This document shows, piece after piece, positions 1 through 12,225 of a stretch of 64,000 nucleotides of DNA (position 1 is its first letter; each line of letters opens with the position of its first letter). A program made the position numbers and the translations under genes. The notes beneath the pieces are model-generated. The model saw nothing but the letters and a program-made list of their open reading frames with translations, was not told the DNA's origin and made no database searches. The stretch spans positions 202,492 to 266,491 of the forward strand of contig CAVRUC010000005.1 of NCBI GenBank assembly GCA_963724295.1. The letters run 5' to 3'. The DNA is from an uncultured Chloroflexia bacterium (GTDB lineage Bacteria > Chloroflexota > Chloroflexia > Thermomicrobiales > UBA6265).

Positions 1-1241
1 CCGCCGGCCACGCGCCGAGAAAAATTGTCCTCGCCTACTCCGGAGGTCTCGATACCTCCTGCATCATTCCCTGGCTGAAGGAACAGTACGGCGACTGCGA
101 GGTCATTGCCGCCGCGGTTGACGTCGGCCAGCCTGACGACCTCTCCCAGATCGAAGCGAAGGCGCTCGCCAGCGGCGCCTCCAGCGCGTACGTCATCGAC
201 GCCCGCGAGGAGTTCCTGCGGGAGTACGTCTTCCCCACGCTCCGTGCCGGGGCTATCTACGAGCGAAAGTATCTGCTCGGCACCTCGATGGCGCGGCCGG
301 TGATCGCCAAGCACCAGGTGGAGATCGCCCTTCTCGAAGGCGCTGACGCGGTCGCGCACGGCTGCACCGGCAAGGGCAACGATCAGGTGCGCTTCGAGCT
401 GACCTACCAGGCTCTGGCGCCACATCTGACGGTCATCGCTCCCTGGCGCTCGTGGCACATTCGCTCCCGCGAAGACGCGATTGCCTACGCCGCCGCGCAC
501 GATGTGCCGGTGCAGGCGACCGCCGCCAAGATCTATTCGCTCGATGGTAACCTCTGGCACCTCTCCCATGAGGGCGGCGCACTCGAGGACCCATGGACTG
601 AGCCTCCTGAGGATGCCTACAGCCTGTCTGTCTCGCCTGAGCAAGCGCCCGACACTCCCGCCTACCTGACGCTCGGTTTCGAAGAGGGCTGGCCCGTTAG
701 TCTCGATGGTCAGCGCCTCGAGCCGCTGCCGCTCGTGCAGGCACTCAATGCCATCGGTGGCGAGCACGGAGTCGGCCGCATCGATCTCCTCGAGAACCGG
801 CTGGTTGGGATGAAGAGCCGCGGTGTCTATGAGACTCCCGGCGGCACAATTCTCGCGACCGCCCACCGCGAGCTGGAGCATCTCACGCTGGATAAGGCGA
901 CGATGCGGCTCAAGGACGAGCTGGCTTTGACCTACGCCGATCTGGTCTATAACGGCCTCTGGTTCTCGCCGCTGCGTCAGGCGCTCGACGCCTTCGTCGA
1001 TCGCAGCCAGTTGCCGGTCACCGGCGACGTGCGCATCAAGCTGTACAAAGGCGCCGCCAGCGCGGTTGGCCGCAGGTCACCTTTCGGACTCTATCGCGAG
1101 GATCTGGCCACGTTCGGCGAAGACGACGTCTACCGCCAGGCCGACGCGGAGGGATTTATCCGGCTATTCGGTCTCGGTCAGAAAGTCGCGGCGCAGCGTG
1201 ACCGTCGCCTACGGGAAGAATCACTGGAGGTGGCACGATGA
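1..1241 (+). CDS. argG: argininosuccinate synthase, 5'-truncated by the window edge
   Basis: Frame 3 is open from nt 3. The translation [21 protein letters not shown] (SGGLDTS PP-loop) runs into the 288..1241 ORF, which carries [13 protein letters not shown] and [19 protein letters not shown]. These are classic ArgG motifs. Confidence 0.95.
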
Positions 1242-1430
1242 CGAAGTTGCATCGGCGGTGGGAGGAACCCTCCCGCTCTCCGCTCGGGCGGCCAGTGCGT
1301 CGGTCCCGTCCGACGCGCTGACGGCCGCCACACCGCGGAACGATCAGCGCATTGCCGCGAACAACTCAGGTGCAGTAGTCATATCTCGACCACCGGCACG
1401 CAACATGCAATATCTGCTGGGTGGTCCCCC

Positions 1431-1751
1431 GCGACGATGGGGAGGAGTAGGGCCGACAACCGCGCAAGCGACTCAGGGATGGTGGAAGCCTGGGACTCGC
1501 GGAATCGCCCCGAACGCGCCCCGGAGCGGCTGGCCGAAGAACGTCGCCTCTCGCGACAAGTAGGCTCAGGTGGGTGGTTCCCACGGAACGAACAACCGAG
1601 AGATGCGCGCCGCCGGGGATTCCCGGTCGCTCGCAAGAAGGGTGGTACCGCGGGAGCAGACGCCTCTCGCCCCTTCGGTCCGGATGCGGCGCACGTTGCG
1701 CCCGCCGGCGCCGGGCGTCCCGTCGACGTCAGGAACCGAAGGGGGTTCGTC
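1431..1751 (+). promoter_or_regulatory. T-box riboswitch leader (translational type, probable Arg specifier) controlling the OTC/LysW operon
   Basis: The core GGGUGGUACCGCG lies at 1640-1652 inside AAGAAGGGUGGUACCGCGGGAG. An antiterminator-like fold is present: helix 1637-1642/1671-1676, 7-nt bulge UGGUACC at 1643-1649, and helix 1650-1656/1664-1670. Stem I shows AG-bay AGCGA (1467-1471), distal loop GAUGGUGGAAG (1478-1488), and nested helices 1431-1436/1542-1547, 1451-1455/1531-1535, 1460-1464/1498-1502 and 1472-1477/1489-1494. CCCCUUCGGU (1670-1679) is perfectly complementary to ACCGAAGGGG (1735-1744), which covers the SD before ATG 1752. Confidence 0.8.
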
Positions 1752-10081: not shown

Positions 10082-10921
10082 ATGCTGGTAATCAAGATCG
10101 GCGGCGGCGCGGCCATCGGCGAGGGCGGCTACAGCAACTTTGCCGAGGACCTGGCTACCATCGCCGAGCCGGTCGTGGTCGTCCACGGCGGCAATGCCGA
10201 GTTCAGCGCGCTGAGCCGTCAGCTCGGCATGCCACCGCGCATGATCACGTCGTCCAGCGGGCGCGTCACTCGCTACACCGACGCCGCGACGATGGACGCC
10301 ATGCTGATGGCCTACTGCGGCAAGGTCAACAAGCGGCTCGTCGCTACGTTGCGCAGCGCCGGCGTCAACGCCGTTGGCCTGAGCGCCATCGACGGGGGCA
10401 TCGCCGTCGGCAGACGGAAACCGGTCCTGCGCGGCGCCGAGGATGGCAAGAGCAAAGTGCTTCGGGACGACCACGCGGGAACCCTGGAGTTCGTGGATCC
10501 CTCGCTGGTGGGGCTCTTGCTGCAGAACGGCTACACCCCCGTGCTCACCCCGCCCGCGCTGGGCGAAGCAGGCGTGCCGATCAACGTCGACGGCGACAAG
10601 CTCGCCCTCGAGCTGGCCACCGCGCTGCAGGCGGAGGGCCTGCTCTTCTTCTCCGACACCCCGGGTCTGCTACGTGACCGGCACGACGAAACCTCGCTAA
10701 TCGCCGAAATCGATGCCTCGTCGCCCGAATCGGCACTGGCAGCGGCGGCGGGCCGCATGGTGGTCAAGGTCGAAGCCGCGCTCGGCGCCGTGGAACGCGG
10801 CGTTGGTCGCGTCGTCTTCGCCGATGGTCGCATTGCCAACCCAATCCGGGCGGCGCTAAACGGGCAGGGAACGACCGTCCGACACGCGATGCCCGCGGCA
10901 GCTGAAAAAAGTGATCGGTAA
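10082..10921 (+). CDS. lysZ: amino-acid kinase, LysZ/ArgB type
   Basis: Motifs present: MLVIKIGGGA and VVVHGGN, with an overall acetylglutamate-kinase-like fold. The gene lies within the cluster. Confidence 0.85.
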   Translation: MLVIKIGGGAAIGEGGYSNFAEDLATIAEPVVVVHGGNAEFSALSRQLGMPPRMITSSSGRVTRYTDAATMDAMLMAYCGKVNKRLVATLRSAGVNAVGLSAIDGGIAVGRRKPVLRGAEDGKSKVLRDDHAGTLEFVDPSLVGLLLQNGYTPVLTPPALGEAGVPINVDGDKLALELATALQAEGLLFFSDTPGLLRDRHDETSLIAEIDASSPESALAAAAGRMVVKVEAALGAVERGVGRVVFADGRIANPIRAALNGQGTTVRHAMPAAAEKSDR

Positions 10922-11043
10922 CCCGCGGGGAAGCGTCTTTCAAATCGTGCCCGTAGGAGCGCCGCCTGCAAGGCGTCGCCCGCATTGCCTAGACGGAGAA
11001 CGCACGATTCGGACGCACCCCCAACACAGGAGCAACGCAACAC

Positions 11044-12225
11044 ATGACGACCGTCGGAACGCTCGACCTGGCTCAAATCCAACACCTCGAAAATGATCAC
11101 CAGCCACCGCTCTACGCCAAACGGGAGATCGCCCTCGTCCGCGGCGAGGGCGCCTATCTCTTCGACACCGAGGGGCGCCGGTATCTCGACGCCATGAGCA
11201 ACTACGGCGTGGCGATCCTCGGCCACGCCGACCGGGAATACGCCGCGGCTCTCAGCGAGCAATTGCAGACCCTGGCCACCGGCCACCAGAGCTTTTACAG
11301 CGACGTCCGGGCCGAGCTGCTCGCCGAAATCGCGCAGATCGCACCGGCCGGTTTGACGCGCTACTTCCTCTCCAACTCGGGCGCGGAGGCCGTGGAGGCT
11401 GCGATCAAGTTCGCCCGCGTCGCCACCGGACGACCGAATCTCGTCGCGGCCAAGCGCGGCTATCACGGACGGACCCTGGGCGCTCTGGCCGCGACCGCCG
11501 ACCAGAAGTACCGCGCGCCGTTCGAGCCGCTGGCGCCGCACACAACGCATGTCACGTTCAACGACGTCGACGCGCTCGCGGCCGCCGTCGACGACCAGAC
11601 CGCGGCCATCCTGCTCGAGCCGATCCAGGGCGAAGGTGGCATCTGGCCCGCATCCTCGGAATATCTCCAGTCCGCCCGGGAGATCGCCACCGCCCAAGGA
11701 GCGCTCCTCATCGCCGACGAGATCCAGACCGGCTTCCGCACCGGCGCTCCCTGGGCGATGAGCGTGTCCGAGGTTGTTCCCGACGTGCTGGTCACGGCGA
11801 AAGCGCTAGCCAACGGATTCCCGATCGGTCTGACGATGTTTACCGAAGCGATCTCGGAGGCGATCCCGAGCGGCGCCCATGGCACAACGTTTGGCGCCAG
11901 CCCGCTGGCTTGTCGCGCCGCAATCGTTACCCTGCGCGCGCTGCGTGAGCGGGACCTCTATGCGCGGTCGGCGGCGCTCGGCGCGGAGATCATGGAACGT
12001 CTTACCGGCCTCGGTAGTCCGAAAGTGCGCCAGGTGCGCGGCCGCGGCATGATGATCGGGGTCGAGCTCAAGGAGCGTGTTACCCCGACTCTCCGGGCTC
12101 TGCAACAGCGCGGCGTGCTGGTCCTTCCCGCGGGACCCACCACCTTCCGCCTCCTACCCCCGCTCATCTGGGAGCAGGAGCAGGTCGACGAGTTGATCGA
12201 GGCGGTTGAATCAACGCTGAACTGA
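11044..12225 (+). CDS. lysJ: class III PLP aminotransferase, LysJ/ArgD type
   Basis: It has typical acetylornithine aminotransferase features: SNSGAEAVEAAIKFAR, LIADEIQTGFRTG, and the PLP-lysine region TAKALANGFP. Confidence 0.85.
   Translation: MTTVGTLDLAQIQHLENDHQPPLYAKREIALVRGEGAYLFDTEGRRYLDAMSNYGVAILGHADREYAAALSEQLQTLATGHQSFYSDVRAELLAEIAQIAPAGLTRYFLSNSGAEAVEAAIKFARVATGRPNLVAAKRGYHGRTLGALAATADQKYRAPFEPLAPHTTHVTFNDVDALAAAVDDQTAAILLEPIQGEGGIWPASSEYLQSAREIATAQGALLIADEIQTGFRTGAPWAMSVSEVVPDVLVTAKALANGFPIGLTMFTEAISEAIPSGAHGTTFGASPLACRAAIVTLRALRERDLYARSAALGAEIMERLTGLGSPKVRQVRGRGMMIGVELKERVTPTLRALQQRGVLVLPAGPTTFRLLPPLIWEQEQVDELIEAVESTLN

Follow-up and report, generated by a model that had tools for sequence, protein, structure and literature searches.

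Organization of the LysW cluster

We analysed a 64,000-nucleotide stretch of DNA (hereafter, the window) from an uncultured Chloroflexia bacterium of the order Thermomicrobiales (contig CAVRUC010000005.1). The window has a G+C content of 65%, and in its first 12.2 kb the gene of the amino-group carrier protein LysW and those of its partner enzymes stand beside genes of arginine biosynthesis, all on the plus strand. The question addressed here is which amino acids are made on this carrier; as argued below, the cluster probably makes both ornithine/arginine and lysine. Its features are as follows.

3–1241, plus strand: argG, argininosuccinate synthase (NF001770, 460 bits, cut-off 334, counted from the first in-frame ATG)
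1425–1751, plus strand: predicted T-box leader, arginine-specific, with an expression platform that sequesters the Shine-Dalgarno (SD) sequence (RF00230 and covariation)
1752–2861, plus strand: OTC-1, canonical ornithine carbamoyltransferase (OTC) (NF001986, 389 bits, cut-off 306; TIGR00658, 371 bits, cut-off 281)
2876–3892, plus strand: OTC-2, tandem OTC paralogue (NF001986, 351 bits, cut-off 306)
3983–4147, plus strand: lysW, amino-group carrier protein of 54 aa (TIGR01206, 68.4 bits, cut-off 53.2)
4200–5108 (alternative start 4176), plus strand: dead LysX paralogue, the pseudo-ligase (LysX model, 42 bits against a cut-off of 276)
5086–6189, plus strand: lysK, [LysW]-lysine/ornithine hydrolase (NF003367, 408.5 bits, cut-off 363)
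6186–7100, plus strand: ligase A, intact LysX-family ATP-grasp ligase (TIGR02144, 305 bits, cut-off 276)
7097–8014, plus strand: ligase B, LysX (TIGR02144, 334 bits, cut-off 276)
8014–8772, plus strand: class I methyltransferase dependent on S-adenosylmethionine (SAM) (Methyltransf_11, 92 bits)
8808–9851, plus strand: lysY, [LysW]-aminoadipyl/glutamyl-phosphate reductase of the ArgC family (TIGR01850, 390.6 bits, cut-off 233.6)
9869–10038, plus strand: repeat insertion, a 33-nt hairpin unit resembling repetitive extragenic palindromes (REP) and a 113-nt repeat (repeat search of the window)
10082–10921, plus strand: lysZ, [LysW]-aminoadipate/glutamate kinase (NF010659, 340.5 bits, cut-off 223)
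11044–12225, plus strand: lysJ, class III aminotransferase of the LysJ/ArgD family (NF042418 LysJ, 417 bits, cut-off 700)

Every element of the gene list that a first-pass annotation, made from the letters alone, had drawn up for positions 1–12225 was thus found at, or a few bases from, the place given there. The reading frame of argG is open back to base 3 and its 5' end lies outside the window; because the frame is open to the edge, the gene is considered to be cut by the window boundary and not to be a pseudogene. The TIGR01850 alignment of lysY begins at residue 29 of the open reading frame (ORF) that opens at 8724. LysJ also stays below the cut-off of the argD subfamily (TIGR00707, 395.8 bits against 410), and its assignment is therefore made at the family level only. 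Both the zinc finger of LysW (CPEC...CPDC) and its EDWGE C-terminus are unchanged in all 15 loci (see below). The components that characterize the amino-group carrier family, namely, a carrier with four cysteines and the EDWGE tail, two ligases with the GSWGR motif, and members of the LysZ, LysY, LysJ and LysK families, are found together in the cluster. Neighbouring genes overlap by 4 nt at both the lysK/ligase A and ligase A/ligase B junctions and by 1 nt at the ligase B/methyltransferase junction, and OTC-1 and OTC-2 are separated by only 14 nt, which indicates translational coupling and bears out the description of the set as mostly coupled.

Profile scans detected no argJ, argA, argB, argC or argD in the 64-kb window, so the earlier remark that the cluster lacks an argJ/argA-type gene holds for the whole window as well. 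Genes for the formation of aminoadipate and a bona fide dapA were likewise not detected in the window by such scans. One gene of the dihydrodipicolinate synthase (DHDPS) family (39795–40703) was considered as a dapA candidate and rejected, since its score of 100 bits falls short of the cut-off (206) and a sugar-acid dehydratase gene is its neighbour. Scans of the window for promoter and terminator consensus sequences gave matches at or below the chance level and are uninformative in a genome of 65% GC.

Conservation of the cluster in Thermomicrobiales

No exact match to ligase B is on file in the public protein collection; relatives at 59–95% identity support the placement in Thermomicrobiales. 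The ORF of the dead LysX paralogue has 297 homologues in the same collection, and the closest of them (64–95% identity) come from soil metagenomes and from metagenome-assembled genomes (MAGs) named Thermomicrobiales or Chloroflexia. The order from OTC-1 to lysJ is repeated on two long contigs of 818 kb and 361 kb, both of which also carry a convergent fumarase/aspartase-family gene and proS. A scan for the pseudo-ligase family in one genome per GTDB species yielded 15 loci, all of them from Thermomicrobiales or Chloroflexota MAGs. When these loci were searched with the window proteins (tblastn), the order OTC1-OTC2-lysW-deadX-lysK-ligA-ligB-MT-lysY-lysZ-lysJ (MT, methyltransferase) was present in every locus of sufficient length, apart from those that have lost the methyltransferase, and synteny extends to at least 13 distinct Thermomicrobiales MAG loci. 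Identities to the relatives amount to 74–96% for the enzymes, 58–83% for the dead paralogue and about 50–81% for the methyltransferase. An adjacent argG was observed in loci L002, L003 and L006, and some relatives are without it; the linkage of OTC to lysW is kept in every locus that is long enough, including the divergent locus L018. The arrangement as a whole is far beyond chance.

Between lysY and lysZ the window differs from its relatives: the genes are 230 nt apart, while the spacing is only 27–37 nt in L002, L005, L023 and L025. The additional DNA comprises a 33-nt hairpin-type repeat, GTGTCATCCCGAGGAACGAGGGATCTCGTCCG (9869–9901), other copies of which lie at 18615–18647, 25918–25950 and 41557–41589, and a 113-nt segment (9926–10038) that recurs at 51674–51786 with 94% identity. 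The insertion between the two genes reported in the first-pass annotation is therefore real, a 33-nt element and a 113-nt repeat standing where close relatives have about 30 nt. Judged by sequence, these repeats look like a small family of the REP type or of miniature inverted-repeat transposable elements, one copy of which appears to have split lysY from lysZ.

Downstream of lysJ, one further gene accompanies the cluster.

12287–13687, minus strand: class II fumarase/aspartase-family gene (NF008909, aspartate ammonia-lyase subfamily, 548 bits, cut-off 510)

It scores 568 bits with fumC_II (cut-off 665), and the equivalog cut-offs of both fumC and aspA are missed. The gene is convergent and lies from 60 nt to approximately 0.9 kb past lysJ in all 10 of the distinct loci that reach far enough. 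It may balance the aspartate/fumarate turnover of ArgG and ArgH.

Specificity motifs of ligases A and B

Substrate choice in this ligase family has been related to a five-residue motif at the positions F182, I192, T203, N258 and S259 of Thermus LysX (TtLysX) [PMC12998189, PMC10433800]. The combination F-I-T-N-S is found in the aminoadipate-specific Thermus LysX [PMC12998189], I-Y-V-G-F in the glutamate-specific Sulfolobus ArgX and Y-I-T-N-A in the bifunctional Thermococcus enzyme [PMC12998189, PMC10433800]. The ArgX of Natrinema, shown experimentally to be specific for glutamate, has Ala-Leu at the last two positions [PMC10433800], and the ligases that accept alpha-aminoadipate have Asn at the fourth position [PMC12998189, PMC10433800].

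The window ligases and their orthologues were aligned to the PDB sequences of TtLysX and of the ArgX and LysX enzymes StArgX and TkLysX, and the published motifs of the references were reproduced. The first-pass annotation had recognized two intact ligase paralogues. Both indeed exceed the LysX cut-off and retain K129, GSWGR, E170, D178/R180, HW..N..R, D237, E249 and N251 (Thermus LysX numbering), and by the specificity motif ligase B is now recognized as LysX-type and ligase A as ArgX-like. Ligase B has F-I-T-N-S, identical to TtLysX, as do all orthologues that reach these positions (13 of 14); it scores 316 bits against Thermus LysX (3VPD), with a BLASTP identity of 54–62% depending on the query protein, and is conserved at 82–94% among relatives. 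Ligase A, which scores 236 bits against TtLysX, has Y-S-A-G-L, and this motif is invariant in 14 orthologues. The Gly-Leu at its fourth and fifth positions resembles both the Gly-Phe of the Sulfolobus ArgX and the Ala-Leu of the Natrinema enzyme.

Predicted arginine- and lysine-specific T-boxes

Another important question is which amino acid the leader upstream of OTC-1 responds to. The RF00230 T-box model aligns over its full length (model positions 1–219) to 1425–1677 with 50.6 bits (E 6e-10 in a 1-kb search). A search of the whole window at the Rfam gathering threshold (93 bits) gave no match, and the T-box surfaces only when E-value thresholds are used; the T-boxes of the relatives, at 39.5–78 bits, also lie below that threshold. 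An Rfam scan of the window cluster revealed no further known RNA element. The conserved T-box sequence AGGGUGGUACCGCG is present, with the T-box core at 1639–1652, and the specifier is CGC (1515–1517) followed by the purine G at 1518. Fourteen orthologous leaders align here without gaps, with CGC as the specifier in 10 and CGG in 4 and with a purine next in all of them, while the triplets of the adjacent reading frames are non-synonymous or invariant.

The structure is supported by comparative data. RNAalifold recovered Stem I, Stem II and Stem III from the 14 leaders, with 96.4% of cells paired, whereas pairing fell to about 40% in slid controls. The alignment contains 26 covarying pairs, compared with 14.3 ± 2.1 after shuffling, and none of 500 shuffles reached this number. 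In the T-box helix, the 3' strand, CCCCUUCGG (1670–1678), has an alternative pairing partner in CCGAAGGGG (1736–1744), a segment that includes the SD sequence of OTC-1. The resulting sequestering helix, with its strands at 1671–1678 and 1736–1743, is seen in both the minimum free energy fold and the consensus fold. A U-tract terminator was not found after the window T-box. From these features we predict that the leader is an arginine-specific T-box of the translational, SD-sequestering class. A translational T-box fixes the start of OTC-1 at 1752, and this start codon is conserved in all leaders. It follows as well that OTC-1 is the only gene gated directly, the reach of the leader to the other twelve genes being presumed. 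Thus, of the single amino-acid-sensing leader proposed initially for the cluster, the sensing part stands, as an arginine T-box with CGC/CGG specifiers, while its direct control is narrowed to OTC-1.

The 50%-identity representative of ligase A led to a divergent lineage, exemplified by L018. Its gene order is OTC-lysW-pseudo-ligase-lysK-ligA(F-S-T-G-L)-[319 nt]-ligB(F-I-T-N-S)-lysY-(toxin/antitoxin)-lysZ-(AAA_33 kinase)-lysJ, and OTC-2 and the methyltransferase are missing. An arginine T-box (5623–5869, 71.9 bits, specifier GAA-CGC-G) precedes the OTC gene, and the gap between the two ligases contains a second T-box (10190–10470, 67.6 bits) whose specifier in the same register is GAG-AAG-A, i.e., lysine. 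The second T-box is followed by a terminator-like hairpin, GCCCUCCGUCC UUU GGACGAAGGGC, with a U-rich tail. The same lysine T-box is present in L019 (2109–2361, 78 bits) and L020 (1526–1778, 72 bits), and no RNA elements were detected in the gaps between ligases A and B of L011, L016, L030, L032 and L034. Apart from its T-boxes, L018 contains a Gp49-family toxin/helix-turn-helix antitoxin pair inserted between lysY and lysZ (12509–13250) and an AAA_33 kinase-like gene between lysZ and lysJ (14124–14648).

A further arrangement is seen in L036 (1279–11840), where an arginine T-box (GAA-CGC-A) is followed by argG, argH, lysW, a semi-degenerate ligase, lysK, an F-M-T-G-L ligase and lysY-lysZ-lysJ. 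An F-I-T-N-S ligase was not found at this locus, which, judging by its gene content, looks like an arginine-only carrier operon with a riboswitch. T-boxes are a bacterial device, and the carrier clusters of the L018 and L036 types are therefore bacterial. Read through their specifiers, the T-boxes would label the side of the OTC, argG and the G-L ligase as arginine and the side of the F-I-T-N-S ligase as lysine.

Two other kinds of RNA-like matches were dismissed. A T-box-like core on the minus strand of L001 and L008 lies inside the coding sequence of the fumarase-family gene and was regarded as a chance match, and the Rfam "microRNA" matches of L032 and L037 fall on palindromic repeat hairpins and do not represent true family members. 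Long, near-perfect palindromic hairpins lie between cluster genes in these two loci (L032, 576–672; L037, 2536–2644), and that of L032 consists of GGACTGAG-like units.

A rival reading is that the window cluster makes only ornithine on the carrier, for arginine and the cell wall, with lysine supplied elsewhere by the diaminopimelate (DAP) pathway and with ligase B being a relic or acting on glutamate despite its motif. Haloarchaea restrict the carrier to arginine in this way and make lysine by DAP [PMC10433800], the window lacks aminoadipate-forming genes, and in the Sphaerobacter-like loci L037–L039 (e.g., L038, 4353–5228) the ligase A type (F-S-V-G-L) is the only one present, an F-I-T-N-S LysX being absent. 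Against this reading stand the exact F-I-T-N-S motif of ligase B, its score of 316 bits to TtLysX and its strong conservation of 82–94%; moreover, a lysine T-box precedes the orthologue of ligase B in L018, and the sole DHDPS-family gene of the window is the rejected dapA candidate described above. A function in arginine synthesis alone appears very unlikely to us.

Association of ligase type with arginine genes and evaluation of a dual function

To assess the genomic context of the ligase types more broadly, we used 67 metagenome loci recovered with ligase A of L018, from which duplicates were removed and which had to extend upstream of the ligase by 3.5 kb or more. argG or OTC was present in the locus for 10 of 13 ligases whose fourth motif residue is Gly or Ala and for none of the five Asn/His-type ligases (Fisher p = 0.0065). 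The lineages are partly dependent on each other, and this association is taken as supporting evidence only. We propose that ligase A is a glutamate-LysW ligase, a function extrapolated from two motif positions, the genomic association and the logic of the T-boxes.

Several observations weigh against a dual function. The first three motif positions of ligase A agree with no characterized ArgX, and the exchange of motif residues in Natrinema ArgX failed to move its specificity [PMC10433800], so the five-residue motif is not fully predictive. In a crude neighbour-joining tree, constructed without support values, ligase A and the protein P0121 are placed beside a bacterial F-I-T-N-S group and away from StArgX. 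The placement of the ligases that had been suggested as a check on their assignment thus leaves ligase A outside the characterized archaeal ArgX clade; because the tree separates the two, the ArgX-like ligase A probably arose independently of the Sulfolobus ArgX. Moreover, the window T-box directly controls only OTC-1, and arginine control of an OTC is expected whatever the source of ornithine. The lysine T-box is known from one lineage of closely related contigs (ligase A 91–93% identical), and NCBIfam places LysZ and LysK in lysine-specific, not bifunctional, equivalogs.

Some of these points could be explained if the carrier served lysine alone, as in Thermus and Deinococcus. Ornithine would then be made elsewhere by the acetyl-dependent route, the OTCs, argG and the arginine T-box would be mere neighbours, and ligase A would be a redundant or retuned LysX. 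The lysine-specific assignment of LysZ and LysK, the fact that both ligases are closer to Thermus LysX than to Sulfolobus ArgX, the direct gating of OTC-1 alone and the absence of argG beside the cluster in some relatives would all agree with this. It is harder to reconcile with the data that none of the five specificity residues of LysX is found in ligase A, whose motif is invariant across the clade, and that OTC and lysW remain linked in every sufficiently long locus, even in the divergent L018. In addition, L018 controls the two halves of its cluster by separate arginine and lysine T-boxes, L036 has lysW and a G-L ligase within an argG-argH operon behind an arginine T-box and without an F-I-T-N-S ligase, and ligases with a small residue at position 4 are associated with arginine genes (p = 0.0065, see above). 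We therefore regard a lysine-only pathway as unlikely.

Proposed pathway

The synthesis of both ornithine/arginine and lysine on LysW remains the reading that we consider probable. It agrees with the central suggestion of the first-pass annotation, a bacterial LysW-dependent route to ornithine/arginine that might also serve lysine, and this suggestion is now joined by the split of the ligase motifs, the arginine T-box and the lysine T-box that stands before the LysX-type ligase in a relative.

Gene identities, motifs, conservation and the specifiers and structures of the T-boxes are observed. The scheme built on them, in which the substrates, the sharing of LysZ, LysY, LysJ and LysK, any T-box effect on genes other than OTC-1 and the pseudo-ligase function are inferred, would run as follows. 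The ArgX-like ligase A would attach glutamate to the gamma-carboxyl group of Glu54 of LysW, and ligase B would load alpha-aminoadipate at the same site. A shared set consisting of the kinase LysZ, the reductase LysY, the aminotransferase LysJ and the hydrolase LysK would then process both substrates on the carrier and set ornithine and lysine free. In line with such sharing, LysW-Glu derivatives serve as substrates for LysZ and LysY of Thermus in vitro [PMC12998189]. OTC-1 would carbamoylate the ornithine, and ArgG, together with ArgH encoded elsewhere, would complete arginine. Ornithine would probably also feed the ornithine-type cell wall known in this class; the cell wall of Sphaerobacter contains ornithine [PMC3035262], and murein of the ornithine type in this genus agrees with a lineage whose requirement is for ornithine instead of DAP. 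The arginine T-box would sense uncharged tRNA-Arg, and in the bound state the ribosome-binding site of OTC-1 would be freed from the sequestering helix. In the sister lineage represented by L018, a lysine-specific T-box of the terminator type would separately control the part of the operon that is led by LysX.

The pseudo-ligase

The protein encoded directly after lysW had been described as a dead LysX-like protein, and this description is accurate: it has lost K129, GSWGR, E170, D178/R180, D237 and N251, i.e., residues for ATP, Mg and the LysW tail, and its HW..N..R segment is deleted, yet it is a full-length homologue of LysX (hhalign, probability 99.4%, E 2.4e-21, 260 columns). A Pfam search with the protein gave no match. 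The family has its own invariant positions and is conserved at 58–95% identity. An AlphaFold2 model based on an alignment of 42 rows, ligases A and B among them, reached a pLDDT of 80.8, and its best matches among PDB folds were 5I47, TtLysX, StArgX and TkLysX, with 5I47 at the top (Foldseek E 6e-19). Thus, the pseudo-ligase is predicted to keep the LysX fold and to be unable to bind ATP/Mg or the EDWGE tail.

The top match, 5I47, is a structural-genomics entry with the title "RimK domain protein ATP-grasp"; its source, Sphaerobacter thermophilus, belongs to the same class and is in culture. A literature search found no paper on this entry. The protein also lacks GSWGR and several catalytic residues but is less degenerate than the window protein, to which it is 31% identical; its identity to the protein encoded right after lysW in L037–L039 is 60%. 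In L036, the ligase that follows lysW is less degenerate, with the catalytic residues kept and GSWGR lost. Taken together, these sequences suggest that the dead LysX is the end of a series of degenerating lysW-adjacent ligases and not a decaying pseudogene. As for the earlier statement that the inactive ligase has no counterpart in described systems, the protein is an old, conserved component, and its distant relative 5I47, which has no assigned function, has a crystal structure.

Most likely, the pseudo-ligase is a non-catalytic partner that docks LysW or pairs with a ligase. A more elaborate possibility is that it divides a common pool of carrier between the two branches, arginine and lysine, and that, with the extended OTC pair including OTC-2, it forms a carrier-centred metabolon that co-evolved with the independent bacterial ArgX. 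This we regard as a doubtful, though not far-fetched, extension of the dual reading; if true, such a metabolon would constitute a regulatory layer without counterpart in the archaeal or Thermus systems.

The OTC pair and the methyltransferase

Both OTCs resemble anabolic enzymes, with family scores above the cut-offs, and they are 58% identical to each other, residual DNA similarity marking a tandem duplication. OTC-1 has all the motifs expected of an anabolic OTC (STRTR, HPMQ, DVHVSMG and HCLP). It also bears an N-terminal extension of ~57 aa with the motif ..LTRVEPQSDPF..SLGG..TFTISARL, and the start codon and the motif are conserved in 14 loci. OTC-2 has a conserved N-terminal extension of ~33 aa, and the single OTC of L018 is extended as well. 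The latter has HDLP in place of HCLP.

The motifs of OTC-2 depart from the anabolic pattern: HPxQ is replaced by HPIE in 15 of 15 orthologues and DVHVSMG by DVHESMG, and DVHESMG and STRTRNA are each present in all orthologues but one. The altered carbamoyl-phosphate motif noticed in the first reading of the sequence is thus an invariant property of this paralogue. Because conservation between species equals that of OTC-1, OTC-2 is best regarded as a maintained, functionally shifted paralogue; its sequence suggests a duplicate OTC that is peculiar to this clade, evolves under purifying selection and has acquired two acidic residues in its active site. As for the view that the second OTC has no counterpart, the HPIE paralogue is limited to one clade and absent from L018. 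By analogy with acetyl- and succinyl-ornithine carbamoyltransferases, we considered whether OTC-2 could carbamoylate LysW-bound ornithine. We regard this as unlikely, as the enzyme keeps the DxxxSMG motif that binds the alpha-amino group and LysW, a very acidic protein, would be repelled by the two acidic residues gained in the pocket.

The methyltransferase has an intact SAM motif I (VLDVGCGTG) and scores 80 bits with Methyltransf_25. Its best NCBIfam match is the DVU_1556 family (80 bits against a cut-off of 155), and its best PDB matches are generic. A role analogous to that of trans-(homo)aconitate methyltransferase was considered and found no family or structural support. The gene is missing in L018 and in L005, L023 and L025, which are otherwise 85–95% identical. 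Since it is lost in such close relatives, it is an accessory gene, an optional passenger that probably catalyses no pathway step. The embedded methyltransferase with its class I SAM domain had been listed among the parts of the cluster without counterpart elsewhere; it is present as described but dispensable.

Three ligase paralogues and a methyltransferase of no assignable family could also point to the synthesis of a non-proteinogenic amino acid on LysW by ligase A, the pseudo-ligase and the methyltransferase, in the manner of the carrier-dependent secondary-metabolite pathways of Streptomyces; according to Hasebe et al. (2016), amino-group carrier protein systems have reportedly been recruited for secondary metabolism. 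No further tailoring enzymes are present in the cluster, however, and the genes concerned are embedded in and translationally coupled to genes of primary metabolism. In addition, the cluster is conserved across the order and is under T-box control typical of amino-acid supply, and the methyltransferase is dispensable in close relatives. We consider this explanation extremely improbable.

Other features of the window

The sugar-acid dehydratase gene (galactonate/gluconate type) and the non-DapA DHDPS-family aldolase gene form a pair at 38595–40703, which is followed by a sortase gene (40793–41497) and then by thrC-thrB (41675–44042); the same pair lies near the cluster on a contig of the L018 lineage. 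Three genes of luciferase-like, F420-dependent oxidoreductases (LLM class) are located at 21178–22179, 46198–47427 and 50115–51092, tandem HtrA-type proteases at 26191–28060, and two ABC-2 transporter pairs at 22195–25770. Paralogous DUF2382 proteins, with 70–82% DNA identity over most of their length, are encoded 1.5 kb apart on the minus strand (51932–52720 and 53506–54246).

An ORF of 600 aa without a Pfam match (55966–57768) contains about four tandem repeats of ~252–270 nt (56319–57365, 62–83% identical) and may encode a repetitive protein that is secreted or located at the cell surface. Just after a metallophosphoesterase gene, 46-nt direct repeats and 38–52-nt inverted repeats rich in CAGGGGG/CCCCCTG occupy 63400–63661.

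Comparison with known systems

A LysW system with separate LysX and ArgX has reportedly been described by Ouchi et al. (2013) for Sulfolobus acidocaldarius/Sulfurisphaera tokodaii. The window system shares with it one carrier, two paralogous ATP-grasp ligases (for aminoadipate and for glutamate, as proposed here) and a single common set of LysZ, LysY, LysJ and LysK. It differs in being bacterial, in the ArgX-like motif Y-S-A-G-L instead of I-Y-V-G-F, and in the addition of a dead third paralogue, tandem N-terminally extended OTCs and T-box control.

As for the T-box, translational SD-sequestering representatives of this class are said by Sherwood et al. (2015) to precede ileS in Actinobacteria. 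Like these, the window leader has a specifier loop in Stem I, a T-box sequence with the UGGU bulge and an alternative pairing by which the SD sequence is masked. In contrast to them, its specifier is arginine, it would control an OTC/LysW operon, and its Rfam score lies below the threshold. To our knowledge, an arginine specifier is rare among T-boxes.

The resemblance to Thermus and Deinococcus extends to the bacterial host with ornithine-type peptidoglycan, LysW ending in EDWGE, LysX with F-I-T-N-S, and orthologous LysZ, LysY, LysJ and LysK. In Thermus, however, the carrier serves lysine only and arginine is made by the canonical acetyl-dependent route [PMC12998189], whereas the window operon adds a second, non-LysX ligase and arginine genes. 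The clustering of carrier genes with argG, argH and argF is known from the haloarchaeal ArgW pathway of Natrinema gari [PMC10433800]. The glutamate ligase of that organism and ligase A have A-L and G-L, respectively, at motif positions 4 and 5, i.e., a small residue followed by Leu, and the gene order of the bacterial L036 is nearly that of the haloarchaeal argGH-argW-argX cluster. The haloarchaeal system is archaeal and restricted to arginine, lysine being made by DAP, and it has no LysX partner, pseudo-ligase or riboswitch. Thermococcus kodakarensis, finally, also uses one LysW system for lysine and ornithine, but with a single promiscuous ligase (Y-I-T-N-A) where the window has two specialized ones.

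A literature search combining LysW with Chloroflexi, Thermomicrobia, GapMind and T-box retrieved no description of the cluster; the prior characterization of this exact gene order, which would have spoken against its novelty, was thus not encountered in the literature searched. Annotation sources name the orthologues of ligase A and of the pseudo-ligase "LysW--L-2-aminoadipate ligase" or "hypothetical protein". Metabolic reconstructions of the abundant soil Thermomicrobiales are therefore likely to mis-score arginine biosynthesis. The pseudo-ligase family, including the orphan structure 5I47, is a concrete and testable component that still lacks an explanation, and the paired arginine and lysine T-boxes offer an unusually direct, RNA-encoded annotation of which genes belong to which amino acid.

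In the latest evolutionary model (FEBS J 2025), the bacterial carrier system is lysine-only and stands beside the canonical acetyl-dependent arginine route [PMC12998189], and the arginine chemistry of the carrier protein has so far been demonstrated only in archaea. If the reading favoured here is true, an ArgX-like ligase with a motif of its own would provide a natural test of the convergent evolution of substrate specificity, the system would be relevant to the question of an ancestral bifunctional carrier pathway, and a bacterial order with two products on one carrier would extend the dual system across domains.

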